A stretch of DNA of 64,000 nt from Pontibacter ruber (GCF_023630205.1 NZ_JALPRR010000002.1:300899-364898), one strand, 5' to 3'. Positions 1-64,000 are shown, counted from the stretch's first letter. Notes: generated from the sequence alone by a model not told the origin. Translations and numbers: made by a program.

Positions 1-179
1 GGGTGCTGCGTTCTGTAGCCAATCTTACCCGCCGGGACGGAGAGGAGTTCCTGCAACTGGCACCCCAGATCCCGGTTAAAACAGAGACACAGCTGTTCCT
101 CCTGCGCCAGGCCAACGAGGCGCTGGCCGCCCTGAAGCAGGGCCGGATACAGGGGGCAGCTGTGCTGGTGATGTCGTAA
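1..179 (+). CDS. 3' end of a zinc-binding alcohol dehydrogenase family gene (5'-partial)
   Basis: Frame 3 translates to ...LAPQIPVKTETQLFLLRQANEALAALKQGRIQGAAVLVMS*. This matches the conserved C-terminus of MDR/zinc-ADH enzymes. Stop TAA at 177-179. Confidence 0.6.
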   Translation, partial: VLRSVANLTRRDGEEFLQLAPQIPVKTETQLFLLRQANEALAALKQGRIQGAAVLVMS

Positions 180-195
180 TGGCTTTATTCTTTGG

Positions 196-885
196 TCAGA
201 AGTTGATGGTAAAGGTGGTGGTATCCTGCAGTTTCAGGTTCACAGTTTCCTCATACTTCCTGATATCCTTATCCTGTACAACGCTCCATCTTAAACGTAC
301 CTGCGGATGCTGCGCGTAAATGAACGCGTTGGTAATGGCAGTATCTGCTAAACTATACAAGCGGTTATTGATGATATGAAGCGTTGTGGGCGAGGTAGGG
401 GCTGGGTTTGATTGGTCGGGCTTTGTATTCCATTCGATCTGCAGGAAAGGCTCTTCGGACCTGTTTGTGGCTGTGCTCTTAAAGTTCAGTTTCAGGTACG
501 CCGATTTGCCCAACACGATCGTATCCTGGTTTGTTTTGGCGTAATCGATCAGAGAAGCAAGCGTTATGGGATCGTTGCTCTCCTGGTAGCCAGGCTTGCG
601 GGCGTTTACACGGTAAACCACCATCTTCTGATCGATTGGGGTGGTAAATTTATACCGGCCACTCTGGTCGGTGACGGTGCTGTCCGCGATGGCGCCTTCA
701 AATTTTGCCTTGTCATCGATCAGGATACCTGTGCCGCGGGTAAAAATTATCTTGGTGTTCGGGAGGGGCATACGGGATTCGTAATCCAGCACCACGCCCT
801 CAAAAGTGGCCTTTTCCACTTCGTCTTTCTTACAAGACAAAAGCGATAGAAGGCCCATTAAGTATAAAGGGTAAAGTTTTTTCAT
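196..885 (-). CDS. lipoprotein with a carboxypeptidase-regulatory-like beta-sandwich domain
   Basis: 229-aa ORF with a real ATG. N-terminus MKKLYPLYLMGLLSLLSC carries a lipobox. The segment FEGVVLDYESRMPLPNTKIIFTRG...DQSGRYKF resembles a CarbopepD_reg-like fold. Confidence 0.65.
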   Translation of the reverse strand: MKKLYPLYLMGLLSLLSCKKDEVEKATFEGVVLDYESRMPLPNTKIIFTRGTGILIDDKAKFEGAIADSTVTDQSGRYKFTTPIDQKMVVYRVNARKPGYQESNDPITLASLIDYAKTNQDTIVLGKSAYLKLNFKSTATNRSEEPFLQIEWNTKPDQSNPAPTSPTTLHIINNRLYSLADTAITNAFIYAQHPQVRLRWSVVQDKDIRKYEETVNLKLQDTTTFTINF

Positions 886-1077
886 ATATGTTTAGCTTTA
901 TACTACCTCTACGAAATGCAGGCGTCGAAGTGATATTGAAATGGAGAGTTTAGGTAAAATATTTATGAGGCGAGGTTTTGTGTCCTTTTCAGCACTACGT
1001 GTTTTGCCAACCTATTGCTGAAAAGCGAAAGAGGCGCTGTTGCATACACCTCCTGTTAAATGCCATTACTATTACCA

Positions 1078-1554
1078 TTATTTCAATCTGATAGGTATCC
1101 AGATTTCCTCTTCCGAGTCGGGGCTGCCGTTTTTATACTTTTCGCCAAGTACTTCGAAATGAGGCCGGTTGTCTAACAGGTAATCGGAGTTTGGCAGCCA
1201 GGAAGAATAAATGTAGTCGAAGATTCCGGTGTCGGTGCCGGAGCCTTTGTAGTGGAATACCGCATACAGGCCGGCCGGCAAAGTATACGTTTCCATCTCA
1301 TCAGGTACGGTATTAAAGTTTGTCACCTCAAGCTCCGCCCATTTCTCAAATGGATTGCTTGGGCTAAAACTTTCAAAATACAGAGGGCCATACACATTCA
1401 TCGAGTAGAGCTCCGGCCCCATGCTGTTCTGAATCTCCTTTCTCCGTGGCATAAATCCTTTCCAGAGTTCGCCTGTCCTGTTATCCGTCAAAGACATGGT
1501 TATCTTTTTACCGATAAGTTTCTTTTCAGCTAGTGTTTCGATCCGGGGTTCCAT
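1078..1554 (-). CDS. GyrI-like / AraC effector-binding domain small-molecule binding protein
   Basis: 158 aa. The sequence MEPRIETLAEKKLIGKKITMS...LPAGLYAVFHYKGSG is typical of the GyrI-like family. Confidence 0.65.
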   Translation of the reverse strand: MEPRIETLAEKKLIGKKITMSLTDNRTGELWKGFMPRRKEIQNSMGPELYSMNVYGPLYFESFSPSNPFEKWAELEVTNFNTVPDEMETYTLPAGLYAVFHYKGSGTDTGIFDYIYSSWLPNSDYLLDNRPHFEVLGEKYKNGSPDSEEEIWIPIRLK

Positions 1555-3738: not shown

Positions 3739-4533
3739 CTACGGTGCAAGGTTAAACTGCACCTCATCCACCGTACCTTTAAAGTAGTCGTAATCGCCCT
3801 CTGGTAAGTGCCAGGTTGCTGTCGCATAGCTTGGGTATTTCAGCGCATCGATCTCCTGGTAACAGCTCACCGTAACCGACCAGGGCACTTTCTTATACGC
3901 TGAGCCTTCCAGGGCAAGGTACCTGTCGTTCGTTTCGAAGCGTTCAAAAAGGCCTTCGTTGCTGAAGTAGAAAGTGCCTTCTACGGTTATATTATTGTAG
4001 TGCAGCTGCCCTCGCGCGGCCTGGCCTATAACCGTTTTCCAGGACACATAAGCCTGTAGCGCATAAGCCGGCAAAAATGCACATTCCGATAAAACAGTTA
4101 CCAGGGCAGAAGCGTCCATTTCAGGCCCCGAGTAGTCGGCTACCTGTAGCAGCTTCAGGAGCCGGATCTGCATACTTCCGTGGCCATCTTTATACTTGTC
4201 GTATCCCTCAAAAGGCAGCACTCCCATCATGGCGCTGTGGATGTAAGCCATCCGGACAGGCTCGGGCACCGCGTTGAATTGCTCGTAATCGACATGCATC
4301 CAGTTTTGCTCAGGGCCAGTCCGGAACATCACATCTTTCCATTTTATACTTGCGCTGACATGCCTCTCCCTGCCAAGGTAGCCACAGTAGGTAATGTATT
4401 TCCGGAACGGCTCGGGCAGGTAGGCTATGTGTTCAGGTAAAAGCAGCGATTCTGGTTGGCCGGCATACTTTTCCAGCTCAGCCCTTGTCTCGGCCTGATA
4501 GATTTTCCTGAGCGATCGGAGCGCAATAGCCAT
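3739..4533 (-). CDS. hypothetical protein
   Basis: 264-aa ORF with an ATG start and uniform coding statistics. I did not recognise any family. Confidence 0.5.
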   Translation of the reverse strand: MAIALRSLRKIYQAETRAELEKYAGQPESLLLPEHIAYLPEPFRKYITYCGYLGRERHVSASIKWKDVMFRTGPEQNWMHVDYEQFNAVPEPVRMAYIHSAMMGVLPFEGYDKYKDGHGSMQIRLLKLLQVADYSGPEMDASALVTVLSECAFLPAYALQAYVSWKTVIGQAARGQLHYNNITVEGTFYFSNEGLFERFETNDRYLALEGSAYKKVPWSVTVSCYQEIDALKYPSYATATWHLPEGDYDYFKGTVDEVQFNLAP

Positions 4534-5954: not shown

Positions 5955-6416
5955 CTGGAGTATGTATAGAAAAGTAGAAAAGCCCGCTCATCAGCAGGTT
6001 AAAGGGAAGCATCAAAAGTAAGAAAAATCCGCTATAGTGAAAGCGGCCCCGGCAGCTAATTGCATTAAATGATACCTGGAAAGGACTGCGTTTTTGCATC
6101 ACGTCCTGTAGGTTTTACTCGTCAGTCATACTTTTTTGTACCCTGTTTGAGGGGTTGAATTTTCTTACCACAGCAATTTTTAGCGCATTAAATGTAACTC
6201 TCACAGCTTATCGAGTACAGCTCGTAATTAAATTGTGTTGCACCAATTACCTTCCTACTACAACCCCGTATATATTAATTCCTTAATAGCCCCCTATACA
6301 ACTGAGTTTTTGTAAGTATAAATATCCTGATAGCAGAAATGCTGTTGGGCATTACTCAGGTAAGTAGGCGTGCATGGAATTGAGAAACACAACTGTAAAT
6401 ATCTAACGATGAACCT

Positions 6417-10895: not shown

Positions 10896-10938
10896 AAGTA
10901 TAGAGCCGCCAATGCGCGGCTCTATACTTTTTATACTT
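10896..10938 (+). terminator. intrinsic terminator hairpin between susD and the first hydrolase
   Basis: Stem aaagtatagagccgc / gcggctctatacttt (15 bp), 6-nt loop, followed by a T-rich tail. The arms carry the AAGTATA motif. Confidence 0.6.
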
Positions 10939-14044: not shown

Positions 14045-15790
14045 ATGATGAAGCCATCAAATAATAAGATTCTCTTGTTATTGATCCCTGTGATCATGGT
14101 AGTAAGCTGCCTCTCCAGTGTACAGGCGCAGTCGAAAGGACCAACCACCTATTGTAATCCGCTTAACCTGGATTATACTTACATGATCTACAACGCGCAC
14201 CAGGACCTCTCGTATCGTTCCGGCGCTGACCCGGCTGTCGTAGAGTTCCGGGATGAGTATTACATGTTTGTGACCCGCTCCATGGGCTACTGGCACTCGA
14301 CGGACCTGACCAACTGGACCTTTATCAACCCCGAAAAATGGTACTTCCAGGGATCCAATGCGCCCGCAGCTTTCAACTACAAAGATTCGGTACTGTACGT
14401 GGCAGGCGATCCATCCGGATCCATGAGTATACTTTACACCGACAACCCCAAAAAAGGAGACTGGAAAGCTACGCCAGCCATTCTAAACGACCTGCAGGAC
14501 CCGGCCCTGTTTATAGACGATGACGGCAAAACCTACATGTACTGGGGCTCATCCAACGTATTTCCTATCCGGGTAAAGACCCTAGACCGCAGCAAGCGTT
14601 TCCGTCCTTCCGAAAAAACCTGGGAGCTGTTTAAGCTGGATATGAGCAAACACGGCTGGGAGCGCTTCGGTGAAAACCACGCCGACACCGCCCGTGGTTA
14701 CATGGAAGGTGCCTGGATGACCAAGCACAACGGCACATACTACCTACAGTATGCAGCCCCGGGCACGGAGTTCAATGTTTATGCCGATGGCGTGTACACC
14801 AGCGACTCACCATTAGGACCTTTCAAGTATGCGCCCAATAACCCCATATCTTACAAGCCGGGCGGGTTTGCCAATGGTGCGGGGCACGGCAGCACTGTGC
14901 TGGGTCCACAAAACCAGTGGTGGCATTTTGCCTCGGCTTCGGTTTCTGTAAACGTGAACTGGGAGCGCCGCCTGAACATGTTCCCGACCTTTTTCGACAA
15001 GGATGGCCTGATGTACATGAATACCTCCTTTGGTGACTATCCACACTTTGCGCCTTCGGTGCCAGGCAAGATGGGGCAGTTTGCCGGCTGGATGCTGCTC
15101 TCTTACAACAAGCCGGTAAAAGTCTCTTCTACGCTCGAAAAATTTGGAGCCGAAAACATCGTGGATGAAAACATCCGCTCCTTCTGGGTAGCGCAGAAAA
15201 ACGACGACCAGCAGTGGATCGAGATCGACCTGCAAAAGCCGGGCAAAGTATACGCCATCCAGCTGAACTACCACGATTACAAGTCAGATCTTTACGGCAA
15301 AATTCCGGGCCTCAAGCACCAGTATACCATCGAAGGTTCTACAGACGGAAAGAGCTGGAAGATGCTGGTTGATAAAAAGAATAACGACAAAGATGTGCCC
15401 AACGATTATGTAGAGTTGCCAACGCCGGAAACGGTGCGATACGTGCGTTTCAGAAGCTACCATGCGCCAACGCCTAACCTGGCGATCTCCGGTTTGCGCG
15501 TATTTGGTAAAGGCAGTGGTAAAGCACCGGACAGGGTTAAAAGTTTTACTGTAAAGCGCCAGCAGGATAGAAGGGATGCACAGATCAATTGGGCTGCAAT
15601 ACCGGGTGCGCAAGGCTATAACATACGCTGGGGCATCGCCCCCGACAAGCTCTACAGTTCGTGGATGGTGTACGGCGAAAACTCCCTTTACATGAGAAGC
15701 CTGACAGTAGACCAGACCTATTATTTTACGATCGAAGCATTTAACGAGAACGGAGTTTCGAAGCAGGTAAAGGTGGTAAAGGTAAACTAA
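14045..15790 (+). CDS. GH43-like five-bladed beta-propeller glycoside hydrolase with C-terminal F5/8-type-C (discoidin) and Fn3 domains
   Basis: 581 aa with a signal peptide. ADPAVVEFRDEYYMF (catalytic-base blade) and EGAWMTKHNGTYYLQYAAPG (acid) are GH43-like. C-terminal NIVDENIRSFWVAQKNDDQQWIEIDL is discoidin-like, followed by an Fn3-like segment. Confidence 0.55.
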   Translation: MMKPSNNKILLLLIPVIMVVSCLSSVQAQSKGPTTYCNPLNLDYTYMIYNAHQDLSYRSGADPAVVEFRDEYYMFVTRSMGYWHSTDLTNWTFINPEKWYFQGSNAPAAFNYKDSVLYVAGDPSGSMSILYTDNPKKGDWKATPAILNDLQDPALFIDDDGKTYMYWGSSNVFPIRVKTLDRSKRFRPSEKTWELFKLDMSKHGWERFGENHADTARGYMEGAWMTKHNGTYYLQYAAPGTEFNVYADGVYTSDSPLGPFKYAPNNPISYKPGGFANGAGHGSTVLGPQNQWWHFASASVSVNVNWERRLNMFPTFFDKDGLMYMNTSFGDYPHFAPSVPGKMGQFAGWMLLSYNKPVKVSSTLEKFGAENIVDENIRSFWVAQKNDDQQWIEIDLQKPGKVYAIQLNYHDYKSDLYGKIPGLKHQYTIEGSTDGKSWKMLVDKKNNDKDVPNDYVELPTPETVRYVRFRSYHAPTPNLAISGLRVFGKGSGKAPDRVKSFTVKRQQDRRDAQINWAAIPGAQGYNIRWGIAPDKLYSSWMVYGENSLYMRSLTVDQTYYFTIEAFNENGVSKQVKVVKVN

Positions 15791-15844: not shown

Positions 15845-18028
15845 ATGAAACACGGTATCCTCTTCTTTCTTTTCTTGTTTTGCCAGTTAGTCGTTTTCGG
15901 TCAGGAAACGCCCTACACGCAGGTGTTCTTTGAGAACAGCCTGATGAGCAGGGATCACTACTACTCGACGGCAACCTATACTGCGCCTGGTTGGGTGAAG
16001 AACAGCCAAAACAAACTGCCGGTAAGCGAGGAGGTGTTTTTTACGCCGGGCAATTCGCTGGAGCTCCGGTATGTGTCGGCACCCAAAGGCAGTTGGCAGG
16101 CGCAGGTGCTCTACCACCCTATCCGGGGTATCGATTTCCTGAAGCCTGCTACCATGCTCACCTTTAGGTTGCTTGTCAAGTCTGAAACGGCCGCCCCGGA
16201 GCTGCCTGCCGTGGCCATTGGTAAGCGGGAGGCAAAGGAATTATCCGCTTTCGTACTGCTTCAGAACTTTGTCAAAGAGTATAAAACCAACGCCTGGCTA
16301 ACGGTGCAGGTGCCGCTCAACAGCTTCAAGGATTTGAGCTACAAGGAGAGTAAGGAGATCGATGTGATCGCTTTTCGGCAGCAGGGCAGCGACGGCAAAG
16401 AGCATGTTTTATACTTGGACCAACTGGAACTGACACCTGCTCCGGCCAGTCAGAAAATAACTGCTGCCCCCAAACTTACCGCCGCAACCGGCTATGAGAA
16501 ACATGTAAGTATAGCCTGGGAAAAGATCACCGATCCGGCAGTGCGCTATGTGCAGGTATACCGTTCATCAGACAACAAAAACTTTACACCTGTGGCAATA
16601 GAGTCGCCAGTGTTAAGCCGCTACGACGATTTTGTAGGCACTACAGGCCAAACGTTCCATTACAAGATCAGTTTCCTCGACGACAACTATACTGAAACGG
16701 CTCAGTCTAACATAGTCAATGCCTCCACACGCCCCATGACGGATGAAGAACTGCTGACGATGGTGCAGGAGGCGCACTTCCGTTATTACTGGGACGGTGC
16801 GGAACCAAACAGCGGGCTGGCGCTTGAGAACATTCCCGGGCGCAGAACCATGGTGGCTTCCGGTGCTTCCGGCTTTGGCATGATGGCGTTGCTGGCAGGT
16901 ATAGAACGCAAGTTTATTACGCGGGAGCAGGGCGTGGAGCGGTTTGTACAGATCGTGAACTACCTGGACAAAGCGGAGAAATTCCATGGTGCTTTCTCGC
17001 ATTTTCTGGATGGCAATACGGGTAAGGTGGTACCTTTCTTTGGCCCGAAAGATAATGGTGGCGACCTGGTCGAAACAGCTTTCCTGGCGCAGGGCCTGCT
17101 TGCTGCACGGGCCTACTTCAACGGCAATAACCAGCAGGAAAAACTCATCCGCGATAAGATCACCGGCATCTGGCGCGGCATCGAGTGGAGTTGGTACCGG
17201 CGCGAAAAGAATAACCCGTACCTGCTCTGGCACTGGTCGCCGGACCAGGCCTGGGTGATCAACCACAAGCTCATCGGCTGGAACGAAACCATGATCGTGT
17301 ACCTGCTCGGCATTTCGTCGCCTTCGCATAGCATACCGGCCAACATGTACTACACCGGCTGGGCAAGCCAGGATGCGGAAGCACAGAAATACCGCTCCGA
17401 CTGGGGCCAGACAAAGGAGGGAAGCAAGTATACCAATGGCAACTCTTACTATGGCATTCCGCTAAAAGTGGGCGTCTCCAACGGAGGTCCCTTGTTTTTT
17501 ATCCACTATTCTTACTTAGGGCCGGATCCGAAAAAGATACAGGACAAGTATACCGACTACTTCAGCAACAACCGCAACATTGCCCTTATCAACTACCGTT
17601 ACTGCGTGGAGAACCCGGAAAAGCACCAGGGCTACGGCGAAGGTGCCTGGGGACTTACTGCCAGCGATGGCCCCTGGGAGTATTCAGCCAGCGAGCCGGT
17701 CCCACGGGCGGATGAGGGCAAAATGACACCAACGGGCGCCCTTGCTTCTTTTCCGTACACACCCGAAGAGTCGATGCAGGCACTGAAGAATTATTACCGC
17801 AACTACGGTCATTTTTTGTGGGGAGCCTATGGTTTCCGGGATGCCTATAACCTGAACGAGAACTGGGTGTCGCCGCTGTACATGGGGCTAAACCAGGCAC
17901 CGATCGTGGTCATGATCGAGAACTACCGCAGTGGCCTGCTCTGGAACCTGTTTATGAGCAACAAGGAAGTGCAGGAAGGCTTACGGAAGATAAAGGCTGC
18001 AGGCAGTATCTCCACGAAAAAGAGATAG
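15845..18028 (+). CDS. GH144 (DUF3131)-like glycoside hydrolase paralog 3 with ~300-aa N-terminal extension
   Basis: 727 aa with a signal peptide. C-terminal half has FRYYWDGAEPNSGLALENI, KFHGAFSHFLDG and GGDLVETAFL, matching the other two paralogs. Confidence 0.65.
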   Translation: MKHGILFFLFLFCQLVVFGQETPYTQVFFENSLMSRDHYYSTATYTAPGWVKNSQNKLPVSEEVFFTPGNSLELRYVSAPKGSWQAQVLYHPIRGIDFLKPATMLTFRLLVKSETAAPELPAVAIGKREAKELSAFVLLQNFVKEYKTNAWLTVQVPLNSFKDLSYKESKEIDVIAFRQQGSDGKEHVLYLDQLELTPAPASQKITAAPKLTAATGYEKHVSIAWEKITDPAVRYVQVYRSSDNKNFTPVAIESPVLSRYDDFVGTTGQTFHYKISFLDDNYTETAQSNIVNASTRPMTDEELLTMVQEAHFRYYWDGAEPNSGLALENIPGRRTMVASGASGFGMMALLAGIERKFITREQGVERFVQIVNYLDKAEKFHGAFSHFLDGNTGKVVPFFGPKDNGGDLVETAFLAQGLLAARAYFNGNNQQEKLIRDKITGIWRGIEWSWYRREKNNPYLLWHWSPDQAWVINHKLIGWNETMIVYLLGISSPSHSIPANMYYTGWASQDAEAQKYRSDWGQTKEGSKYTNGNSYYGIPLKVGVSNGGPLFFIHYSYLGPDPKKIQDKYTDYFSNNRNIALINYRYCVENPEKHQGYGEGAWGLTASDGPWEYSASEPVPRADEGKMTPTGALASFPYTPEESMQALKNYYRNYGHFLWGAYGFRDAYNLNENWVSPLYMGLNQAPIVVMIENYRSGLLWNLFMSNKEVQEGLRKIKAAGSISTKKR

Positions 18029-18095
18029 AACAAATATCCAAAGTATAAACGAATTGCAACAGAACCGTATCAGTAACAAAACAAACACAGCGATA

Positions 18096-22982: not shown

Positions 22983-23002
22983 TGCGCTGAGAAGTACAAC
23001 CA

Positions 23003-23059
23003 AAGTATAAACCCGCTGCACAGACCAGAATTAGGTCAGGTGAAGCGGGTTTATACTTT
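23003..23059. terminator. bidirectional terminator-like hairpin between convergent genes
   Basis: 16-bp perfect arms aaagtataaacccgct / agcgggtttatacttt around a 26-nt spacer. Both arms carry the abundant AAGTATAAA motif. Confidence 0.55.
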
Positions 23060-24403: not shown

Positions 24404-24465
24404 TTTATACTTGAAGATCCAATACATAAAGTATAAAGGTCAGTAGAGGGCACTTTTTATACTTT
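24404..24465. repeat. three copies of the 9-mer, two forming a perfect inverted repeat
   Basis: tttatactt gaagatccaatacata aagtataaa ... ttttatacttt, in the divergent intergenic region between the HipA-like and M16 genes. Confidence 0.75.
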
Positions 24466-38879: not shown

Positions 38880-38964
38880 AGTATAGCTGAAAGTATAAAA
38901 AGCCCCTGCAAGTATAAACCAGCAGGGGCTTTTTATACTTTCGTGATTTTCAGCTTTATACTTA
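38879..38964. repeat. cluster of five copies of the abundant 9-mer AAGTATAAA/TTTATACTT around the terminator of the giant gene
   Basis: aagtatagc, aagtataaa (38891), aagtataaa (38910, in the hairpin loop), tttatactt (38932), tttatactt (38955). Confidence 0.8.
38901..38936 (+). terminator. intrinsic terminator after the giant ATPase gene
   Basis: agcccctgc [aagtataaacca] gcaggggct followed by TTTTT. The loop itself is the abundant 9-mer. Confidence 0.75.
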
Positions 38965-40827: not shown

Positions 40828-41157
40828 ATCATCAACGCTTCTCTACATTTCAGGAGAAAACCTTTTTGATAAGCTCAAAATTTAATTAGTACTATTTAAA
40901 TATTTTGTACGAATAAAGATGTTCAACGTGTACGAAAAGCTACGAAGAGATAGGTATGGGAGGAGAAATCGCTGTCAATCAACTAAAGTAACAAGTGAAA
41001 AGTGGGGGAGGTGCTGTTGTATACTTGCTTTGGTTGTTCCTGCGCGTGGAGTAACCTGAATTTATACTTGATGTAACATGATTAAAGCTAAAGAACGTGC
41101 ACGTATGTTCAGGATGTTTCCCTTCTTTGCAGCAAGTGCTTTATTTATATAAACGAA

Positions 41158-43379: not shown

Positions 43380-43780
43380 AAAACAATGCGACGGTGGTTA
43401 ATAAATTGATGATGGAGCTGAAAATAGTTGAGAAGATAAAGTTTTATTATTAAAAATCATACACCTACGGTCACTACCTGTTGAGCCAATTTATTTTTGA
43501 CTTGTTTTCTGTTTGCCGCTACCACTTCCTGCAGCTCAGGTACACTGCCTGAATGCCTGTACTATACCTGCCGCATCCGGTGTGCCTCTGCTGCGGGATG
43601 TTGTGCAAAGCATGCTGTTCATCACTCTGTATAGGTCTTACCGGTACTACTCTGTGCTGGTAGGTATATGGTATCCATGTGCCTAAGAGCCTCCGCAAGC
43701 AAACTCCCAATGATTTATACTTCCCTATCAGAAGGTAAGTATAAACTTTGATTCAGAATCAGAGCCAGAAACAAGGGCAG

Positions 43781-47210: not shown

Positions 47211-47241
47211 AAAAACCCAAGCCTCCGGGCTTGGGTTTTTG
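47211..47241 (+). terminator. intrinsic terminator
   Basis: aaaaacccaagcc tccg ggcttgggttttt. Confidence 0.8.
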
Positions 47242-47311
47242 CTAACAAATCCTTTTACAGCAAGTATAAAGCAGATTAATAGGATTTATACACAAACCAA
47301 ACGACTGTATC

Positions 47312-50546: not shown

Positions 50547-51953
50547 TTACAATGATTTCGGAACGGCCTCTTTGGCTTTATCGGACCTTGCTGCAATTTT
50601 CCTGTCGATAGCCGGCAGCACCAGCAGCAGTATAACGCCCACGGCCAGCACACCTACGCCTACAAGCGCTCCCAGACCAGTATAAACCAGGCTGGAGTAC
50701 AACAGGTAAGCACTTGATAAACAAAATATCAGGGGCGTGACAGGGTACAACGGAACACGGAACGGCCGCTCTCGGTCGGGCTCCTTTCGGCGTAAAATGA
50801 ACAGGGCAACTCCAACCAGCAAAAAGAAAAACCAGAAAACAGGGGCCGTATACTCGATCATGGTGGCAAAACCATTGCGGGTCAGAAGCCCCAGGCTGAT
50901 AAGCGCAAGTGAGATAAACCCCTGCACGATAAAGGCATTTACTGGCGAAGAGGTCTGCTCGTTCCACTTACCTAGTATGCCGAACAGCGGAAAGTCTCTG
51001 CCCAGGGCATAATTGGTGCGGGCACCCGTGAAGATAGTGGCGTTGGCAGAGGTCAGCGCCGAAACAGCGACCAGCACCCCGATCAGTAGCACGCCCCCCT
51101 CGCCGAAGGTGATTCGCATCAGATCGCCTGCCACGGCATCAGACTGCGCCATGCCGCTCAGCCCAAGCACGTTCAGGTAAGCCAGGTTAATGAGCAGGTA
51201 TATTATTGTAATGAGGATGATGCCCGCGACCAACGCTATCGCCATGCCCTTTCGCCCGGACCTGAGCTCCCCGGAAATGTAAGCTGCTTCGTTCCAGCCG
51301 CCAAAAGTGAGGAGAACAAAAACCATGGCAAGCCCCAGGGAGTTTGTCTGCCCTGAAGTATCAGAAGCTATACTTGATGCGCCGGCCTGTTCCGGCGCAA
51401 AGAAGAAACCAGCACCGGTGATGATCAGAATTCCCAGTACTTCCACCGTTGTAAGCACTTTCTGGGTGCCTGTACCGACTTTAACGCCAACTATGTTGAT
51501 GCCCGTCAGAACGATCACAACCAGAGACGCATAGATGACAGGCGAAAATTCACCCAACGTATAGATCTGCGTCAGGTAATCGCCTATGATGAAGGAGAGC
51601 AGCGCAATAGAGCCTGTCTGGATGACACTCATCCGCGCCCAGGCAAACAGGAAAGCAAGTCGCTTGCCGTAGGCCCGCCTCAGGAAGTAATAATCTCCGC
51701 CGGTGTTTGGAAAAGTAGTGGTAAGTTCAGCGTAAGAAAGCGCACCGATCAGCGAGACAACGCCACCCAACACCCAGGTCAGCAGAAATATGCCGACACT
51801 CCCGCTATTTGCTGCCACCAGCGAAGGTGTCCTGAAAATACCGGCACCGATCACAATGCCTACGATCACGGCAATGGCATCTGTTAGCCCCAAAGCAGGT
51901 TTTGGCTCGGCTTCTGTTCCAATACGCAAATTGCCCTGGGTTTTCTCCTTCAT
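50547..51953 (-). CDS. APC-superfamily amino-acid permease (paralog of 41946..43379)
   Basis: The ORF track starts at a TTG at 52010. The ATG at 51953 gives MKEKTQGN... . 12 predicted transmembrane segments. Confidence 0.82.
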   Translation of the reverse strand: MKEKTQGNLRIGTEAEPKPALGLTDAIAVIVGIVIGAGIFRTPSLVAANSGSVGIFLLTWVLGGVVSLIGALSYAELTTTFPNTGGDYYFLRRAYGKRLAFLFAWARMSVIQTGSIALLSFIIGDYLTQIYTLGEFSPVIYASLVVIVLTGINIVGVKVGTGTQKVLTTVEVLGILIITGAGFFFAPEQAGASSIASDTSGQTNSLGLAMVFVLLTFGGWNEAAYISGELRSGRKGMAIALVAGIILITIIYLLINLAYLNVLGLSGMAQSDAVAGDLMRITFGEGGVLLIGVLVAVSALTSANATIFTGARTNYALGRDFPLFGILGKWNEQTSSPVNAFIVQGFISLALISLGLLTRNGFATMIEYTAPVFWFFFLLVGVALFILRRKEPDRERPFRVPLYPVTPLIFCLSSAYLLYSSLVYTGLGALVGVGVLAVGVILLLVLPAIDRKIAARSDKAKEAVPKSL

Positions 51954-52465
51954 ACTGCGTCGCGTTCCTGTTATCCTCGGTAAAGCTCTACTGATCCATC
52001 TGCAAGGCAAAGTATAAAAGCCCAGCCATTGGGTGATCAGCGGGTAAAAACATAAAGTATTTTACGTCAGGAACAGGGCACGGCACAAGGGGCAGCGGAA
52101 AAGCTAAGTTAAAGAAGCTATTGCTGCTGTAAGGGCACCATAAGTGTTAGTTAATGTATGGCTATGTTTTTTTCTAAATAGTGTAAAACCAAGAACGAGG
52201 TATGTTGCTACTCATAGCAATGGGTTATACTTAACCAGTGAACATAGGATCGGCAGAAGTAGGTATTCTTTCCCGCTTCCGCCCAAAAGGCTTTGATAAA
52301 GTATGACCATCAGTAGCCTGCCAGCTGATATGGAAAAGCATTTTATACTTGTATTACAAGTATATAGAGGACCGGAAACACAGCAAAAATCACTGCTAAA
52401 ATTTTGTATACATATTAGGCCAAAACTCTCTAAATTGTAAGGTCGAAATTCACCTCATACTGCCA

Positions 52466-54676
52466 ATGAAACACTTCACAAAAAGTATTGCTCCGTTACT
52501 GCTTTTCGTTACCATCCTTTTCTCCTGCTCGGTAAATCAGAAAGTTGCCTCATCAAAAGAGGTGGCGAATTGGAAAGAACAGGCTGCGCGCGTTACCATT
52601 ATCCGCGATGATTTTGGCGTGCCGCACGTGTACGGGAAATCTGATGCAGATGCTGTGTTCGGATTGTTGTACGCCCAATGCGAAGACGATTTTAACCGCG
52701 TAGAGCGCAATTACCTGTGGGCGATAGGCCGGCTGGCAGAAGTAGAAGGAGAGGAGATGCTCTATAGCGATTTGCGTGCTAAACTGTACATGAGCAAAGA
52801 GGAAGCTATCCAGAACTATGAAAAGAGCCCGGAATGGCTGAAGGCGCTTTGCCAGGCCTATGCCGATGGCATTAACTATTACCTGCACACGCACCCGGAA
52901 GTAAAGCCGAAGCTGCTTACACGTTTTGAACCCTGGATGCCGATGTATTTTACCGAGGGCTCAATTGGCGGCGACATCGAAAGTATATCTACCGAAAGGA
53001 TCAAGGCTTTTTATGGAAGCAACAAATCGTTGGGCTACAACAACTATAAAACAGGGCTGGTAAAACCAGGTATACTTGACGAACCAAAAGGGTCCAACGG
53101 GTTCTCGATCTCCGGAAAACATACAGCTTCAGGCAATGCTATGCTGCTCATCAACCCGCATACTTCTTTCTTCTTCCGTGGCGAAGTGCATGCCGTGAGC
53201 GAGGAAGGACTGAATGCGTATGGCGCCGTTACCTGGGGGCAGTTTTTCGTGTACCAGGGTTTTAACGAAAAGCTTGGCTGGATGCATACTTCTGCTTATT
53301 CTGATGTAATCGATGAGTTTGAAGAAACCATCGTGAAGCAGGATGGCAAGCTGTTTTACAAGTATGGCGAAGCGCTTCGCCCGGTCTCTACTTCTGAAGT
53401 AACACTGTCGTACAAATCCGGCAACGAAGTAAAGCAGAAGACCTTTGCCACCTACCGCACACACCACGGCCCGATCACGCACCAGAACGGCGACAAGTGG
53501 GTAGCCACCGCCCTGATGTGGAAACCGGTAGAGGCGCTGACGCAGTCGTATATCCGCACCAAGCAGACCAACCTGCAGGAGTTCAACGAGATGATGAAGA
53601 TGCGTACCAACTCCTCGAACGCCACTGTATATGCCGATGCTGATGGCAACATTGCCTACTACCACGGCAACTTTTTCCCGCGCCGCGATACCTCGTTCGA
53701 CTACTCCAAACCCGTTGATGGCAGCAACCCGAAAACCGACTGGAACGGCCTGCATACGCTGGAGGAGACCATTCGCCTGATAAACCCGCCGAATGGCTGG
53801 ATACAAAACTGTAACTCAACGCCGTTTACAAGCGCCGGAGAGTATAGCCCCAAAAAAGAAGATTACCCGGTTTACATGGCACCGGCACCGGAGAACTTCC
53901 GTGGCGTGCACGCTATTCGCCTGCTCAAAAAAGCAAACAACCTGACGCTCGACAAGCTGATCGAACTGGCTTACGACCCCTACCTGCCGGGCTTTGAAAT
54001 GCTGATACCGGGGCTTGTGAAAGCCTACGACAAGCAGAAGCCAAACGACCCGAAACTGAAGGAAGCCATTGACGTGATGCGCAAGTGGGACTATGCAGTG
54101 TCAAAGGAATCAGTGGCGATGTCGCTGGCTCATTTTTATGCTACTAATTTAACCAAGAACGGCAGCGCACCTAAAAACATGGGCCTGATGGAGCGCTTTG
54201 ATTATTATACCAACACAGCCCCAGAGCAGGAACGCCTGGAAATTTTCAGCCAGACGATTGCGCAACTGGAGAAAGACTTTGGCAAGTGGAACACCCCGTG
54301 GGGCGAGATCAACCGCTACCAGCGTCTTAACGGCGATATCAAGCAGGTGTTTGATGACAGCAAGCCGAGTTTGCCAATTGGGATGGCTTCCGGAAACTGG
54401 GGAGCACTAGCCTCTTACGGAGCAAACTCTTACAACACCAAACGCCTTTACGGTACATCGGGCAACAGCTTTGTGGCCGTAGTGGAGTTTGGCGATAAGG
54501 TAAAGGCAAAGAGTATGCTGGCCGGCGGCCAGAGCGGCGACCCGAATTCACCGCACTTCGACGACCAGGCGCAGCGTTACGCCGATGTGAAGTTCAAAGA
54601 TGTAGCCTACTACCGCGAGGATGTAGAGAAGCGCGCAAAAGCAACCTACCACCCGGGCGAGGAAGTGAAAAAGTAA
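52466..54676 (+). CDS. penicillin-acylase-family Ntn-hydrolase (PvdQ/AHL-acylase-like), secreted
   Basis: 736 aa with a signal peptide. The internal GSNGFSISGKHTASG provides the N-terminal Ser nucleophile after autoproteolysis. Family-wide conservation. Confidence 0.82.
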   Translation: MKHFTKSIAPLLLFVTILFSCSVNQKVASSKEVANWKEQAARVTIIRDDFGVPHVYGKSDADAVFGLLYAQCEDDFNRVERNYLWAIGRLAEVEGEEMLYSDLRAKLYMSKEEAIQNYEKSPEWLKALCQAYADGINYYLHTHPEVKPKLLTRFEPWMPMYFTEGSIGGDIESISTERIKAFYGSNKSLGYNNYKTGLVKPGILDEPKGSNGFSISGKHTASGNAMLLINPHTSFFFRGEVHAVSEEGLNAYGAVTWGQFFVYQGFNEKLGWMHTSAYSDVIDEFEETIVKQDGKLFYKYGEALRPVSTSEVTLSYKSGNEVKQKTFATYRTHHGPITHQNGDKWVATALMWKPVEALTQSYIRTKQTNLQEFNEMMKMRTNSSNATVYADADGNIAYYHGNFFPRRDTSFDYSKPVDGSNPKTDWNGLHTLEETIRLINPPNGWIQNCNSTPFTSAGEYSPKKEDYPVYMAPAPENFRGVHAIRLLKKANNLTLDKLIELAYDPYLPGFEMLIPGLVKAYDKQKPNDPKLKEAIDVMRKWDYAVSKESVAMSLAHFYATNLTKNGSAPKNMGLMERFDYYTNTAPEQERLEIFSQTIAQLEKDFGKWNTPWGEINRYQRLNGDIKQVFDDSKPSLPIGMASGNWGALASYGANSYNTKRLYGTSGNSFVAVVEFGDKVKAKSMLAGGQSGDPNSPHFDDQAQRYADVKFKDVAYYREDVEKRAKATYHPGEEVKK

Positions 54677-54693
54677 AGTATAAACAAAGTATA

Positions 54694-54728
54694 AAAAGCG
54701 GCTTAAACTATGGTTTAAGCCGCTTTTC
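54694..54728 (+). terminator. intrinsic terminator
   Basis: aagcggcttaaac tatg gtttaagccgctt followed by TT. Two AAGTATAAA copies lie immediately upstream. Confidence 0.8.
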
Positions 54729-55541: not shown

Positions 55542-55678
55542 AGCTTTGGTGAGATCTCTCTTTTCGTATTTAACTGCGGGATCTACTTCCGGGGTATTGC
55601 TGTAATCGCAGCTCTGCCTCCCTCCATACTTACCGCTGTTTCGTACAACCCAAGGTATAGCTCAGAGAAGTATAAAGT

Positions 55679-56485: not shown

Positions 56486-56602
56486 TTTAACCCTTTCGCC
56501 AGCAGCTGTTTTAAGAACCAGGCTCAGCTACCGTGCGTACCTCCTTTAACATTGCTGCCTGATCTTCAGGCTGATTTTATACAAGTATAAAAATCAAATG
56601 AC

Positions 56603-58842: not shown

Positions 58843-58856
58843 CGCTTTATACTTCC

Positions 58857-61556: not shown

Positions 61557-62159
61557 TCAAGGTTTTATCTCACCTGTATCATTGATCAAAAGTAACCTGG
61601 CGTTCTCGTCGTAAACATCGATTATACTTACCGAGGCAGGACTTATCTCAATGCGCTGGAACATATCCAGGTGTACTCCTGCATAGTATGCGACAGCTGC
61701 TTTGATAATGTCGGCGTGGCTTACGACGGCTATGGTTTCGTGCGGATGCCTTTCACAGAGTTTGTGCAGCCCTGTAACGATGCGCGTCTGGGCCTCAAGC
61801 ATTAGCTCGCCACCCGGAATGCGGGTATGACTTCTGAATGAATTAAAGCGCTGAAAAAGGGGATCACCGGAGAGCTCTTCGAAGGTACGGTTGGTCCATT
61901 CGCCGAAGTTCAATTCCAGAAAGTCTTCATCAATAGTGGTCGGGATATTCAGCTGCCTTGCAAGAGGCTCGGCGGTTTCGACTGTGCGTTCCAGGGGGCT
62001 GCTGTAAATAGCTTTTACAGGCATGTGGGCGAGCCGCTGTGCTAATTTTTCTGCCTGGGCTTTTCCTTCCTCATTTAAATGCACAGACCCGGTTCGACCG
62101 GAAAAGCGTTTGCCAACAGAATCAGTAGTGGCGTGTCGGATAAGCATAAGTTTAGTCAT
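61557..62159 (-). CDS. histidine-phosphatase (phosphoglycerate-mutase-like) family protein
   Basis: The ATG at 62159 gives MTKLMLIRHATTD, the RHG motif with catalytic His. The ORF track start is 14 codons upstream. Confidence 0.78.
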   Translation of the reverse strand: MTKLMLIRHATTDSVGKRFSGRTGSVHLNEEGKAQAEKLAQRLAHMPVKAIYSSPLERTVETAEPLARQLNIPTTIDEDFLELNFGEWTNRTFEELSGDPLFQRFNSFRSHTRIPGGELMLEAQTRIVTGLHKLCERHPHETIAVVSHADIIKAAVAYYAGVHLDMFQRIEISPASVSIIDVYDENARLLLINDTGEIKP

Positions 62160-62545
62160 GTAGATCGGGCTGTTTAAGTCTGGTTCATGATCATATATCA
62201 AAATTCCAGACAGCGTAATGGTAGTTGAAAATTAACCGTGCCTTTAAACGGAGCATCAGCACAAACCGTTATCGGGTTCCGCCACATTGTACTTTGGTAA
62301 ATACTCTCAGGCAACATGTCTGAAGATCTGGTAAAATTATGCTGCTGCGCTTACTGAATCTGGCAATAGGACAACAATAAGAAACTGGCCGGGAGCTTAA
62401 ATATAAAGTTTAGCTAAATAACCTAAAGCGTATTTATATCGTTGGCATGAACCAGCAGTACGCATGCTTTTGCCTTTCCTCTTCCGGGATTCTCGCCTTC
62501 ATGCATGTAAGGCCACAATAAGAATTAAACTTAATCAGAATTAAA

Positions 62546-63655
62546 TTGGAGCAGCCGAAATACAAGCCTGTTTTAAAGATTGGTGTCCTTACATTTCACC
62601 GCTGTATCAATTTTGGCAGTTACTGGCAGGCGCGTTGCTTGGTGGAAGGCTTGCAGGCGCGCGGGCATGATGCCGTTATACTAGACCACGACTCGAACCG
62701 CGTGAACCTGGCCGAATGGAAATGTGCTTTCCGGCCTGTTCTGCCTACGCCCGTTCCTCCCGCAGACCATTCCCTCTACCGTGAGAAGATTCAAAAGTTC
62801 TTTCGTGTGTTTGATACCTTGCCGCTTTCGCCGCGCTTCCAGGTAGTTGATCCGAAAGAAATGGAAGCCTATGATACGGTGGTTGTGGGCAGCGATGAAG
62901 TATGGAATTTGTCTCACCCGTGGTACGGCGGTTACCCTCTGTTTTATGGGGAGGGCGTACAGGCAAATCACCTGATCTCCTATGCAGCCAGCTTCGGTAA
63001 TTACGATGCATCCTGGGGAATGGAGCAAAGCTGGGCAGAAAGACTCCGCAATTTTGGGATGATCTCCGTGCGGGATGAAAACTCGCAGGCCATCATCCGG
63101 AACGCCTTAGGGTATGAACCCGAAATGGTGCTGGATCCGTGCCTGCAGTTTCCGATAGTGCCGGAAGAAAGAGAGCTGGAAAACTTAGAGGAGCCTTATG
63201 TAGCCGTTTACGGGCACAATTTTTCTGAATTTTTCATTCGTGAAATCCGTAATTGGGCAACAGAGAAAGAGCTTCGGCTGATAAGCATCGGTTACCGGAA
63301 TGATTGGGCCGATGAACAATGGATTGCCGCAGACCCGCATGATTTTGCGCATTTTATGGCCAGGTCTGAAGCTGTGGCAACTAACTTTTTCCATGGCTGT
63401 GTCTTTGCTCTTCGCAATGCGAAGCCGTTTGCCTGTGAAGCGTCGCCCTACAGAAGGCATAAACTACAAGGCCTGATGTCAAAAATTGGCGGCGAGAAAC
63501 ACCTTGTTTCCGAAGACACACCGGCTGCAGTTTACAACATCCTGTTAAGCGAACCATTAGATACTACTATACTTCAGAAGATCAGCCATCTGCGACAAAC
63601 ATCTAATGCGTACCTGGATAAAGCACTGGTTCTTCAACAAATTCAATATGCATGA
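62546..63655 (+). CDS. polysaccharide pyruvyl transferase family protein
   Basis: 369-aa ORF. The only start codon after the upstream stop is a TTG. KIGVLTFHRCINFGSYWQA matches the PS_pyruv_trans N-terminus. The stop overlaps the next gene's start (ATGA). Confidence 0.65.
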   Translation: MEQPKYKPVLKIGVLTFHRCINFGSYWQARCLVEGLQARGHDAVILDHDSNRVNLAEWKCAFRPVLPTPVPPADHSLYREKIQKFFRVFDTLPLSPRFQVVDPKEMEAYDTVVVGSDEVWNLSHPWYGGYPLFYGEGVQANHLISYAASFGNYDASWGMEQSWAERLRNFGMISVRDENSQAIIRNALGYEPEMVLDPCLQFPIVPEERELENLEEPYVAVYGHNFSEFFIREIRNWATEKELRLISIGYRNDWADEQWIAADPHDFAHFMARSEAVATNFFHGCVFALRNAKPFACEASPYRRHKLQGLMSKIGGEKHLVSEDTPAAVYNILLSEPLDTTILQKISHLRQTSNAYLDKALVLQQIQYA

Positions 63656-64000
63656 AAGATTTGCTTAGCCCAAAAGATATTGTCCGCTCCGGATTGTGTA
63701 TAGGTTGTGGGAGTTGTGTAGCGCAGGCAGCCTCGAACGGCACAGCAATGGATTTTGACTGGTACGGACAACTTAAGCCGAAAGGCCCTGAGGAGTGGTA
63801 CAGAAGCGACTCTGAAAGCTTTACCCGAACCTGTCCGTTCTCGCCTGCAGCAAAAAATGAAGACCACCTGGCAGCCGAGCTTTACCCAACAGCCCGGCAG
63901 GCCCACCTGGCAACAGGGCGCTTTGAGACTGCATATGTGGGGCACGTTTCGGAAGAAGATTTCCGTTTGCAGGGAAGCTCGGGAGGCATGGTCACCTGGG
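63652..64000 (+). CDS. coenzyme F420 hydrogenase/dehydrogenase beta-subunit-like (FrhB/FdhB-type) protein, 3'-truncated by the window end
   Basis: MKDLLSPKDIVRSGLCIGCGSCVAQAA... carries a CxxCxxC iron-sulfur motif. This family is commonly paired with pyruvyl transferases in exopolysaccharide loci. Confidence 0.6.
   Translation, partial: MKDLLSPKDIVRSGLCIGCGSCVAQAASNGTAMDFDWYGQLKPKGPEEWYRSDSESFTRTCPFSPAAKNEDHLAAELYPTARQAHLATGRFETAYVGHVSEEDFRLQGSSGGMVTW

Follow-up and report, generated by a model that had tools for sequence, protein, structure and literature searches.

What accounts for a single 9-nt word, AAGTATAAA, that recurs in this Pontibacter chromosome segment at ~80-100 times its chance frequency, on both strands and both within and between genes? 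In the window, i.e., the complete 64-kb stretch analyzed, we counted 36 exact copies of AAGTATAAA or its reverse complement TTTATACTT, of which 21 are on the + strand and 15 on the − strand and, thus, show no strand bias within a single replichore. Based on 100 dinucleotide-preserving shuffles, 0.37 copies are expected on average and three at most. The ~35 copies reported in the preliminary description were close to the actual number; its GC content of ~53% is corrected to a measured 50.5%. For every k from 6 to 12, the top k-mers in the window are AAGTATAAA and its sub-words. Within positions 1-64000, the core AAGTATA occurs 95 times (52 +, 43 −) and AAGTATR 143 times, and beside the AAGTATR population, there are 41 copies of AGGTATA; the density is 0.6 exact and 1.5-2.2 core copies per kb. 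The consensus is sharp: one-off variants of AAGTATAAA occur 0-11 times each in the window vs 36 times for the exact word, position 7 accepts only purines (95 A and 48 G vs 6 C and 5 T), and the flanks of the copies hold no information outside the 9 bases. The copies and the structures in which they participate are as follows (an entry not described otherwise is a single exact 9-mer).

860-868, +: antisense within the opening codons of ORF 196-885(−); its position would be just upstream of the alternative ATG 855-857
1132-1140, −: in ORF 1078-1554(−), sense strand
2947-2955, +: divergent intergenic region; ATG 2961 is 5 nt on
4189-4197, −: in ORF 3739-4533(−); codes for K-Y-K
4343-4351, −: in ORF 3739-4533(−); frame differs from that of the 4189 copy
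6314-6322, +: divergent intergenic region; SusC-like gene 94 nt on
10896-10938: hairpin AAAGTATAGAGCCGC-loop-GCGGCTCTATACTTT with the core word as AT-rich stem base in both arms, followed by an exact copy at 10930-10938 (−)
16408-16416, −: in ORF 15845-18028(+), antisense
18041-18049, +: tandem intergenic region; stop 12 nt before, ATG 18096 46 nt after
19203-19211, +: in ORF 18096-20435(+), K-Y-K frame
20013-20021, +: in ORF 18096-20435(+), K-Y-K frame
20526-20534, +: codons 2-4 (M-K-Y-K) of ORF 20523-21320
23002-23059: hairpin in a convergent intergenic region; 16-bp stem AAAGTATAAACCCGCT / AGCGGGTTTATACTTT, 26-nt loop; exact copies at 23003 (+) and 23050 (−)
23085, −: core copy beyond hairpin 23002-23059
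24404-24464: three exact copies of alternating orientation (24404 −, 24429 +, 24456 −), divergent intergenic region
27520-27528, +: 90 nt past stop 27429
30129-30137, +: abuts the ATG of ORF 29478-30128(−); gene strand reads TTTATACTTATG
30933-38879, +: segment in the AGGTATA dialect with two genes (711 aa; 1655-aa DUF3686 ATPase); 14 copies of AGGTATA vs 1 of AAGTATA
33078-33118, +: terminator-like hairpin, 13-bp stem; its T-rich tail is the word, TTTATACTT at 33110-33118
38879-38963: five core copies, four of them exact (38891 +, 38910 +, 38932 −, 38955 −), convergent intergenic region
38889-38942: hairpin, 21-bp stem GAAAGTATAAAAAGCCCCTGC / GCAGGGGCTTTTTATACTTTC; one copy in the loop
39666-39674, +: upstream of ORF 38962-39597(−), 68 nt from its start
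41061-41069, −: tandem intergenic region; second core copy at 41020
43714-43745: inverted pair TTTATACTT-N14-AAGTATAAA, 35-58 nt past the end of an hrpB-like gene
47262-47270, +: 41 nt before ATG 47312; downstream of hairpin 47211-47240
52010-52018, +: divergent intergenic region; ORF 50547-51953(−) starts 56 nt away
52342-52364: 10-nt inverted repeat TATACTTGTA-T-TACAAGTATA, one arm of which is an exact copy (52342-52350, −)
54676-54727, +: two direct exact copies 11 nt apart, at 54676 (overlapping the stop codon) and 54687, then a hairpin with a 15-bp stem (54694-54727)
55668-55676, +: ATG 55679 is 2 nt on
56583-56591, +: ATG 56603 is 11 nt on
58846-58854, −: two convergent genes are 14 nt apart here, and the copy takes up most of this gap

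Several of the positions given previously had to be shifted by 1-4 nt, to starts at 2947, 24429, 41061, 43714, and 52342, and the copies at 1132, 4189, 4343, 16408, 19203, 20013, and 20526 had been missed. The word is concentrated between genes: based on our ORF model, 25-27 of the 36 exact copies are located within, or border on, the intergenic DNA that makes up 13% of the window, and the earlier claim that two thirds lie in the ~12% that is intergenic therefore holds. The observed/expected ratio is 105 in intergenic and 31 in coding DNA. Within the ORFs of the window, the core occurs 53 times vs 6.8 ± 2.4 times in synonymous-codon shuffles, i.e., an ~8-fold enrichment that extends to all six frames, and a 5-12-fold coding excess over shuffles was also found in eight other loci covering all three dialects (see below). 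ORF-internal copies arise by substitution and leave the reading frame undisturbed. Enrichment in all six frames within genes together with the ~100-fold enrichment between genes points to DNA-level pressure behind the word rather than to a promoter, a regulator, or a mobile element. Because the dialect of the window is 78% A+T, the word would be best tolerated between genes; in the GC-richer AGGTATA dialect, most copies are genic (35/49, 34/38, and 26/33), and the intergenic bias is therefore not intrinsic.

Word density is highest in convergent intergenic regions, and past stop codons, the maximum falls at 0-40 nt for AAGTATA and at 40-80 nt for TATACTT. The hairpins and pairs named in the preliminary description are present (23002-23059 with its 16-bp stem; 38889-38942 with its 21-bp stem and a copy in the loop; 10896-10936; and the inverted pairs 24404/24429 and 43714/43737), as is the palindrome near 52345, in the form of 10-nt inverted arms around a single central base (52344-52364). 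The supposed preference for inverted pairs did not hold up: adjacent core copies ≤60 nt apart form 8 inverted vs 8 direct pairs in the window, and in seven loci of the same dialect together, there are 35 inverted vs 45 direct pairs. The spacers between paired copies are unrelated. The word provides flanks, arms, or loop in ~1/3 of the terminator-like hairpins (5 of the 15 intergenic hairpins in the window contain it, 10 do not), which looks like co-option. Copies close to start codons were found as described: the ATGs at 2961, 18096, 55679, and 56603 follow a copy after 5, 46, 2, and 11 nt, respectively, and the ATG at 30128 directly adjoins one; however, upstream of starts, the distribution is flat in both orientations, and neither distance nor orientation is fixed.

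Across Pontibacter, there is a family of hyperabundant words with the general form A-R-S-T-A-T-A-R, and AAGTATAAA (core AAGTATR) is its local dialect, as judged from the ~64-kb window and ~20-kb samples of other loci rather than whole genomes. The AAGTATA dialect is present in the window and seven other loci (L001, L003, L017, L081, L082, L083, and L085), the AACTATAG(TT) dialect in P. populi and P. burrus at ~3.3 copies per kb, and the AGGTATA dialect in L004, L006, P. roseus, and Pontibacter sp. JH31 (in the latter at two loci 770 kb apart). The dialects group by clade in an Mqo tree. In L003, two dialects are interspersed in one genome. Two sister dialects are palindromic, AACTATAGTT and GGTATACC, and centered on a deformable TATA step, while the palindromic form of the window's own dialect, AAGTATACTT, is not enriched (6 of 326 copies). 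Word sites are conserved between genomes beyond background (10 of 12 sites vs 42% of all 7-mers, p = 0.004). We saw no comparable word in most other sampled Bacteroidota loci, and the best 8-mers reach z scores of ~5-6 in Flavobacterium and Pedobacter loci vs 16-52 in Pontibacter.

The AGGTATA-rich segment at 30933-38879 (~8 kb) stands out by its closeness to an AGGTATA species. Its genes have 94% amino acid identity to Pontibacter sp. JH31 vs 76-87% for the flanking genes, 12 of its 14 AGGTATA copies are at the same positions as in JH31, and one JH31 AGGTATA site is AAGTATA in the window. Judging from these sequence comparisons, the segment is probably recombined-in DNA that kept the dialect of its donor. 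Because a JH31-like segment bears AGGTATA at JH31 positions, dialect tracks DNA ancestry. Elsewhere in the window, too, there is a moderate enrichment of AGGTATA.

Other cases of this pattern are the DNA uptake sequences in Neisseria and Haemophilus and HIP1 in cyanobacteria, and a genomic self-signature of the DUS/USS or HIP1 type is the best fit to our data. By analogy, we consider it most likely (with a probability of roughly 0.4) that AAGTATAAA is a DUS/USS-like word that marks DNA as "own" and is read by a lineage-specific DNA-binding protein, and a function in uptake or recombination is plausible. Specifically, we infer the existence of a protein reader and a role of the word in DNA uptake or recombination. 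According to this model, words strewn along both strands of the chromosome, within genes as well as between them, would be maintained at the DNA level as recognition sites for the protein tagging own DNA; as in DUS/USS, favored uptake and recombination of word-bearing fragments, together with selection, would cause them to accumulate, and the word would shift together with its receptor to generate dialects. Bidirectional terminator hairpins would secondarily have made use of intergenic copies, be it as an A- or T-rich flank, a stem base, or a loop. Because two dialects are mixed in L003 and AGGTATA is enriched in the window outside the import, recognition would have to be relaxed. The earlier suggestion of an uptake-signal-like, orientation-independent word is partly supported: it gains from the six-frame coding enrichment, the flankless sharp consensus, the dialects, the site conservation, and the partial terminator use, and loses the argument from inverted pairing. 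We counted against uptake that a dimeric DNA-binding protein or a methyltransferase would go just as well with the palindromic sister dialects, that close pairs are not preferentially inverted, and that only 1/3 of the hairpins bear the word.

DUS/USS occur in thousands of copies, form eight dialects that follow phylogeny, and are frequent in terminators (PMC3630211, PMC1852404, bioRxiv 10.1101/2025.10.24.684340). The DUS of Neisseriaceae resembles the Pontibacter word in being short (10-12 nt vs 7-9 nt) and comparably dense, in occurring on both strands with a sharp consensus, in genic and intergenic DNA and often in terminator hairpins, and in having clade-specific dialects that follow phylogeny around an invariant core, CTG in DUS and TAT(A) in Pontibacter (PMC3630211). 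Moreover, DNA of another dialect is recognizable inside a genome, as indicated for DUS (PMC7371117) and as seen for the JH31-like segment. In contrast to DUS, the Pontibacter word is from Bacteroidota, is unrelated in sequence and AT-rich, does not favor inverted over direct pairs, and can share one genome with a second dialect (L003). The density of the USS in H. influenzae is of the same order as that of the Pontibacter word. The USS of Pasteurellaceae likewise has a 9-mer core and, as the AGGTATA dialect, a large coding share, and is held by 17-29% of terminators (PMC1852404) vs 5 of 15 hairpins here; the lineage differs, and we detected no flanking AT-rich helical-phase extensions around the Pontibacter word. 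In the literature searched, we found neither a description of this word nor uptake or transformation data for Pontibacter. Among Bacteroidota, natural transformation is on record for a few, namely Riemerella and Porphyromonas, for which no sequence preference is known to have been reported.

The placement of the copies raises the question of whether the word is primarily a gene-expression element, i.e., belongs to intrinsic terminators or acts as a promoter box or as the operator for a global regulator. The peak density in convergent intergenic regions, the copies just past stop codons with inverted ones 40-80 nt downstream, the use by 5 of 15 intergenic hairpins, the several copies 0-11 nt before start codons, and the position of the 24456 copy, which is kept in the closest relative (L083) upstream of an M16 peptidase gene, are consistent with this idea. 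Similar to the Bacteroidetes sigma-A promoter (−7 TAnnTTTG, −33 TTTG), the word is AT-rich, TTTATACTT has a TA step and then a run of T, genes are preceded by some of the copies, and TTTATACTTTTG on a viral contig matches the −7 box. However, G[A/C]AAGTATAAA, the consensus in the window, departs from TAnnTTTG, no −33 or other partner box was found near the copies, 10 of 15 hairpins lack the word, its copies are nearly exact and do not resemble the degenerate sites of operators or promoters, and it is enriched eight-fold in ORFs in all frames and orientations. Moreover, the word changes between congeners, while core transcription signals are conserved phylum-wide. Together with the absence of a preferred distance or orientation relative to starts, this makes such a role quite unlikely, and the "global regulatory or promoter motif" of the preliminary description is not supported. 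Remnants or ends of mobile elements (MITE, REP) or a polar chromosome motif (Chi, KOPS) could explain a species-specific word of high copy number, which in the window is mostly intergenic and at times forms inverted repeats. This highly improbable reading is already contradicted by the bare 9 bases, the substitution origin, and the strand symmetry of the word: REP/BIME and MITE are 20-150-nt units with a conserved interior and their own hairpin, whereas here only 7-9 bases are conserved, paired copies have unrelated spacers, copies lie in frame-intact ORFs, and no Rfam family matched. It is also unlikely that the word is functionless and arose neutrally, as the by-product of a bias in mutation or repair that is specific to the lineage, e.g., very-short-patch-like repair converting near-cognates to the word. 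Such a bias would agree with a genome-wide distribution in the loci sampled, in all frames and on both strands, dialect shifts could follow a changed specificity of the repair enzyme, and the enriched one-off variants are mostly A-to-G transitions (e.g., AGGTATA and AAGTATG). However, no one-off precursor is depleted, variants being present in the window at or above expectation, sites are kept between genomes beyond background, and the 100-fold intergenic enrichment and ordered placement at terminator hairpins suggest that copies are used.

The fit is almost as good for a HIP1-like role, i.e., one in chromosome structure or methylation, which we regard as a possible, tentative alternative to uptake. 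Here, the site would be bound or modified by an abundant chromosomal protein (a nucleoid-associated protein or an orphan methyltransferase) and kept because it serves chromosome structure, repair, or replication, while playing no part in uptake. HIP1 (GCGATCGC) is 15- to 300-fold overrepresented within and between ORFs, its sites are conserved beyond expectation, and no gene-level role was found; selection on HIP1 has been argued from two of these features, namely coding and non-coding hyperabundance and site conservation (PMC5861425). The Pontibacter word has the same properties, with hyperabundance in all frames, and both have lineage variants; furthermore, AACTATAGTT and GGTATACC are palindromic around the TATA step, as expected of a dimeric reader, and AGGTATA copies are mostly genic. 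On the other hand, HIP1 is a GC-rich palindrome read by known methyltransferases, whereas the window word is AT-rich, non-palindromic, and strongly intergenic-biased. Also, a structuring protein with thousands of sites is not expected to switch specificity three times in one genus without drive. HIP1 is now reported to enhance natural transformation (bioRxiv 10.1101/2024.09.10.611283), and therefore, a HIP1-like role partly converges with the uptake reading.

The 9-mer AAGTATAAA or its complement is present 36 times in the window (GC content, 50.5%), with 21 copies on the plus strand and 15 on the minus strand, compared with an average of 0.37 and at most 3 copies in 100 dinucleotide-preserving shuffles. 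At each k from 6 to 12, the top k-mers are this word and its sub-words, and the 7-mer core, AAGTATA (reverse complement, TATACTT), is present 95 times (52 plus and 43 minus). Each single-base variant of the 9-mer has 0-11 copies, and AAGTAT is followed by A 95 times, G 48 times, C 6 times, and T 5 times, pointing to purines only at position 7. In all species with the AAGTATA dialect, enrichment of the main word is accompanied by that of a GC-richer form, AAGTATGG(C), which lies mostly within ORFs; AAGTATG is found at 48 window sites, including AAGTATGG 17 times, and is also co-enriched in three sampled loci from other organisms (L082, L085, and L017). Therefore, position 7 is a purine and not strictly an A. 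We aligned the flanks of the 95 core copies and of 238 copies from the window and three related loci. In both alignments, the information content is ~0 outside positions −1 to +9, arguing that the word is bare and does not belong to a larger repeat unit; among the 238 copies, no further box at a fixed spacing was found. The sharp consensus and the purine-only position 7 look like base-specific recognition rather than unit copying. Because the GC skew is positive over the entire window, we place the window inside one replichore, within which the copies of the 9-mer and of the core have no strand bias.

Using greedy ORF calling, we modeled 49 genes covering 87% of the window, and Pfam matches in 27 of 28 scanned window proteins support this model. 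According to the model, 25-27 of the 36 exact copies are intergenic or at gene edges. For each compartment, the expected count was based on its own composition.

Observed and expected copies of the word in the two compartments of the window
Intergenic DNA, 8.3 kb: 9-mer, 25 observed vs 0.24 expected; core AAGTATA, 37 observed vs 2.1 expected
Coding DNA, 55.7 kb: 9-mer, 9 observed vs 0.29 expected; core AAGTATA, 53 observed vs 3.6 expected

Shuffling of synonymous codons within each gene, which keeps the protein sequence and codon usage, gave 6.8 ± 2.4 core copies in ORFs (maximum, 14), against which the 53 observed copies represent an 8-fold enrichment. The coding copies are spread over the three sense and three antisense frames, and a 5- to 12-fold coding excess is likewise found in eight loci from other species. 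These observations rule out a codon usage or peptide artifact and argue that the pressure acts on DNA as such. The GC-richer AGGTATA dialect described below is located mostly within genes (35/49, 34/38, and 26/33 copies), which argues that the intergenic bias in the window reflects the poor fit of an AT-rich word to coding sequence. Thus, the bias, although strong, is no indication of an intergenic function.

Our evidence base comprises the ~64-kb window and ~20-kb samples, with ORF-based gene models. The malate:quinone oxidoreductase (Mqo) of the window, with its best match (84% identity) in an uncultured Pontibacter, assigns the window to this genus, and the M16 peptidase is 81-85% identical to those of named Pontibacter species; the closest M16 match (91% amino acid identity) is found only on a 2.7-kb soil contig. 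The samples from other species span 20 kb around the Mqo or M16 genes and are mostly non-syntenic with the window. They display the same phenomenon with different words, with comparable densities at unlinked loci from seven other species and at two loci of Pontibacter sp. JH31 that are 770 kb apart.

Dialects of the word in Pontibacter (L-numbers are sampled loci)
AAGTATA(AA): the window, L001, L003, P. chitinilyticus, P. anaerobius, P. mucosus, P. akesuensis, and L083; 1.5 core copies per kb in the window
AACTATAG(TT): P. populi and P. burrus, and interspersed with AAGTATA in L003; 68-77 copies per 21 kb
AGGTATA(G/C): L004, L006, P. roseus, and sp. JH31 (both loci); ~2 copies per kb

The form common to all dialects is A-R-S-TATA-R. 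In a neighbor-joining tree of one gene, Mqo, the dialects group by clade, and we provisionally regard them as congruent with phylogeny. Across Pontibacter loci, the best 8-mer scores z = 16-52, compared with ~5-6 in the Flavobacterium and Pedobacter control loci and ~10 in those of Hymenobacter. In the M16 genes, copies have been gained and lost through point substitution, at differing codons in each species. Upstream of M16, one copy is conserved in the closest relative, and a second copy differs between the two by a single base (AAGTGTAAA vs AAGTATAAG). The AGGTATA-dialect locus L006 also contains, at 14321-14390, a hexamer microsatellite, (GGTATA)n with ~12 units, whose core is shared with the hyperabundant word of that species.

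AGGTATA is enriched in the window too (41 copies); 14 of these copies fall within a pair of genes (30933-33068 and 33912-38879) that together hold a single AAGTATA. The gene at 33912-38879 encodes a DUF3686 ATPase and has the highest GC3 of the window (0.77). Both proteins share 94% identity with their counterparts in JH31, a species with the AGGTATA dialect. For the flanking genes, identity to JH31 is 76-87%, and the DUF3686 proteins of other Pontibacter match that of the window at 78-82%. Nucleotide identity to JH31 falls from 85-93% within the segment to 75-80% in the adjacent DNA. Of the 14 AGGTATA copies, 12 are position-matched in JH31, and one AGGTATA site of JH31 is AAGTATA in the window. 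For the DUF3686 gene, comparison of the window with JH31 shows full conservation at 10 of 12 sites vs 42% of all 7-mers (p = 0.004; one segment). The simplest reading is that the segment stems from an older recombination with an AGGTATA lineage, that the words of the donor have been retained, and that these imported words have been kept above the neutral rate. We infer from these comparisons that dialect tracks DNA ancestry.

The segment overlaps a conserved operon (30301-38879) encoding a YqiJ-like membrane protein, a 711-aa protein with no Pfam match, a DMP19-like protein (DNA-mimic family), and the 1655-aa DUF3686+AAA "DNA repair ATPase". The DMP19-like gene (33273-33815) has a GC content of only 35% and looks like a separate insertion because an unrelated PH_40 gene occupies its slot in JH31. 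A plasmid search with the DUF3686 protein identified no Pontibacter plasmid.

The structures named in the preliminary description (hairpins, inverted pairs, and start-proximal copies) occur in the window, with coordinates slightly off. No preference for inverted pairing was found; among adjacent copies at most 60 nt apart in seven same-dialect loci, 35 pairs are inverted vs 45 direct. After stop codons, AAGTATA peaks at 0-40 nt and TATACTT at 40-80 nt, corresponding to the arrangement AAGTATAAAAAG-stem-loop-stem-CTTTTTATACTT, which occurs at the following positions of the window:

38889-38942: AAGTATAAAAAG-stem-loop-stem-CTTTTTATACTT
23002-23059: the same arrangement
33078-33118: the same arrangement
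54676-54727: the same arrangement

Because 5 of 15 intergenic perfect-stem hairpins carry the word, the association is partial. The DNA uptake sequences (DUS/USS) of Neisseriaceae and Pasteurellaceae are frequent in terminators as close inverted pairs; the post-stop profile of the Pontibacter word fits this placement, but the pair counts show no excess of inverted over direct pairs. In our reading, bidirectional terminators have probably recruited the hairpin copies secondarily from a word that is abundant and AT-rich, as already proposed for USS and DUS (PMC1852404). Two ORFs, at 23474-24274 and 20523-21320, open with ATG-AAG-TAT-A (M-K-Y-...), placing the core directly after the start codon, and this start-adjacent core of the HipA_2-like ORF is conserved in L083.

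A primary role in expression would fit the start-proximal copies, yet we consider it distinctly improbable. In seven loci of the same dialect, the word is spread evenly, in either orientation, over 0-200 nt before 115 gene starts, and in the window the orientation to the nearest start is approximately half and half. This flat, orientation-independent profile, together with the lack of a partner −33 box, the abundance in ORFs, and the differences between congeners, argues against a Bacteroidetes promoter element. No Rfam family was detected in the window at gathering thresholds. That the word is a mobile or polar motif is scarcely credible. A REP/MITE or other mobile unit is at odds with the absence of conserved flanks in the 238 aligned copies and with ORF copies arising by substitution, and a Chi/KOPS-like polar motif with the absence of strand skew (21+/15−) in a single replichore with a positive GC skew. 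We set aside Ssn/NTS-type hairpin repeats because those are ~30-bp structured units (PMC11893778). The word could also be a by-product of repair bias, which we regard as improbable; the VSP-repair signature, a depleted one-off precursor, was not seen in the window, where counts are small.

The combination of hyperabundance, a sharp bare consensus, strand symmetry, occurrence in all frames, dialects, above-background conservation, and partial terminator use matches, in our analysis, one known class, i.e., genome-wide self-signature words. In Neisseria, the uptake-sequence receptor is a ComP-type minor pilin. DUS/USS are the members of this class that are understood by experiment: receptor-imposed uptake bias and recombination lead to their accumulation, their dialects track phylogeny, and approximately half of the copies are in terminators (PMC3630211; PMC1852404; bioRxiv 10.1101/2025.10.24.684340). 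DUS/USS number hundreds to thousands per genome. The Pontibacter word shares with them a copy number far above expectation (36 vs 0.37 in the 64-kb window), occurrence on both strands without replication-strand bias and in coding as well as non-coding DNA, and lineage dialects with a common core (AAGTATA, AACTATAG, and AGGTATA). No competence genes were seen among the 28 window proteins scanned with Pfam. HIP1-like words have a cognate (orphan) DNA methyltransferase and a periodic spacing at 10-90 kb. HIP1, the iterated cyanobacterial word, is conserved and 15- to 300-fold over-represented, and a role in chromosome structure has been proposed for it (PMC5861425); more recently, it was reported to raise the efficiency of natural transformation (bioRxiv 10.1101/2024.09.10.611283). 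A comparable chromosomal role of the Pontibacter word is possible, although on balance unlikely. HIP1 sites are conserved between genomes beyond background, as are the AGGTATA sites (10/12 vs 42%, in one segment). However, HIP1 is a palindromic octamer, whereas AAGTATAAA lacks this symmetry and AAGTATACTT shows no enrichment; palindromes do occur among the sister dialects (AACTATAGTT and GGTATACC). We favor a DUS-like self-recognition role, with a probability of about 40%; repeated dialect shifts in one genus are most easily accounted for by a drive that would couple a putative reader to its thousands of sites.

To our knowledge, sequence-specific uptake of "own" DNA is established in two proteobacterial families only, and HIP1 is the sole other well-studied hyperabundant word, with a function unsettled after 30 years. 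More specifically, we tentatively suggest that Pontibacter (Bacteroidota, Cytophagales) may have its own DUS system with at least three dialects (AAGTATAAA, AACTATAGTT, and AGGTATAG) and a putative receptor, in which dialect would bias uptake or recombination and would leave a legible donor signature in recombined segments, e.g., at 30.9-38.9 kb of the window. If so, this would be the first such system outside Proteobacteria. Comparison with a third, unrelated lineage would help to address the origin of such words (selection vs molecular drive) and the identity of the reader; in Pontibacter, the dialects diversified inside a single genus, track clades, and betray recombined DNA. Covariation of dialect with candidate DNA-binding proteins across sequenced species could identify the reader, and inter-lineage recombination in Pontibacter can readily be detected with the word as a marker. 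If the word promotes uptake, it could serve as a transformation tool for genetically intractable soil and desert Bacteroidota; if it turns out to be no more than a by-product of repair or a site for a nucleoid protein, it would nevertheless provide a clean new case of genome-wide selection on a short word. Full-text searches on the words, on Pontibacter competence, and on hyperabundant words in Bacteroidota returned nothing, and the finding appears to be undescribed within the literature searched.

Other over-represented words were observed in the sampled DNA. In L053 (1-21458; uncultured bacterium MFD02581.bin.1.61; GC content, 54%), the palindrome (C)TGCAAGTACTTGCA(G) has 16 copies in 21 kb and an 8-mer z-score of 93, the highest of all loci; it is often the tip of terminator hairpins, has 6 copies within ORFs, and may be an independent hyperabundant word of another organism. 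Further strongly over-represented words in L061 (Spirosoma profusum), L011 (Telluribacter humicola), L018 (Chitinophaga dinghuensis), and L033 (a Chitinophagaceae MAG) include ACGTAGCG (n = 20; z = 24; mostly in ORFs), the palindrome CGGTACCG (z = 14-19), and AGAAGTTAGAA (n = 11; intergenic, 11/11). Among the viral contigs scanned, none of which was identifiable as a Pontibacter phage, no phage had a host-like genome-wide word density, and paired copies were AT-rich chance matches or local operator-like clusters. In two IMG/VR contigs with a GC content of 35% (L123, 7170-7870; L114, 1270-1960), repeated units TTTATACTTTTGCCCTAAAATAAGAAAAGTATAAATG consist of inverted AAAAGTATAAA arms 16 nt apart, immediately 5' of ATG, and TACTTTTG fits the Bacteroidetes −7 promoter box TAnnTTTG; these repeats look like a phage promoter/operator unrelated to the genome-wide word. 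The viral contigs L208-L291 carry tight arrays of the palindrome AACTATAGTT with 4-8 copies per ~200 nt (e.g., L209, 1430-1606; L225, 6676-6852; L279, 13234-13311) and are otherwise motif-poor; the arrays look like operator or iteron clusters.
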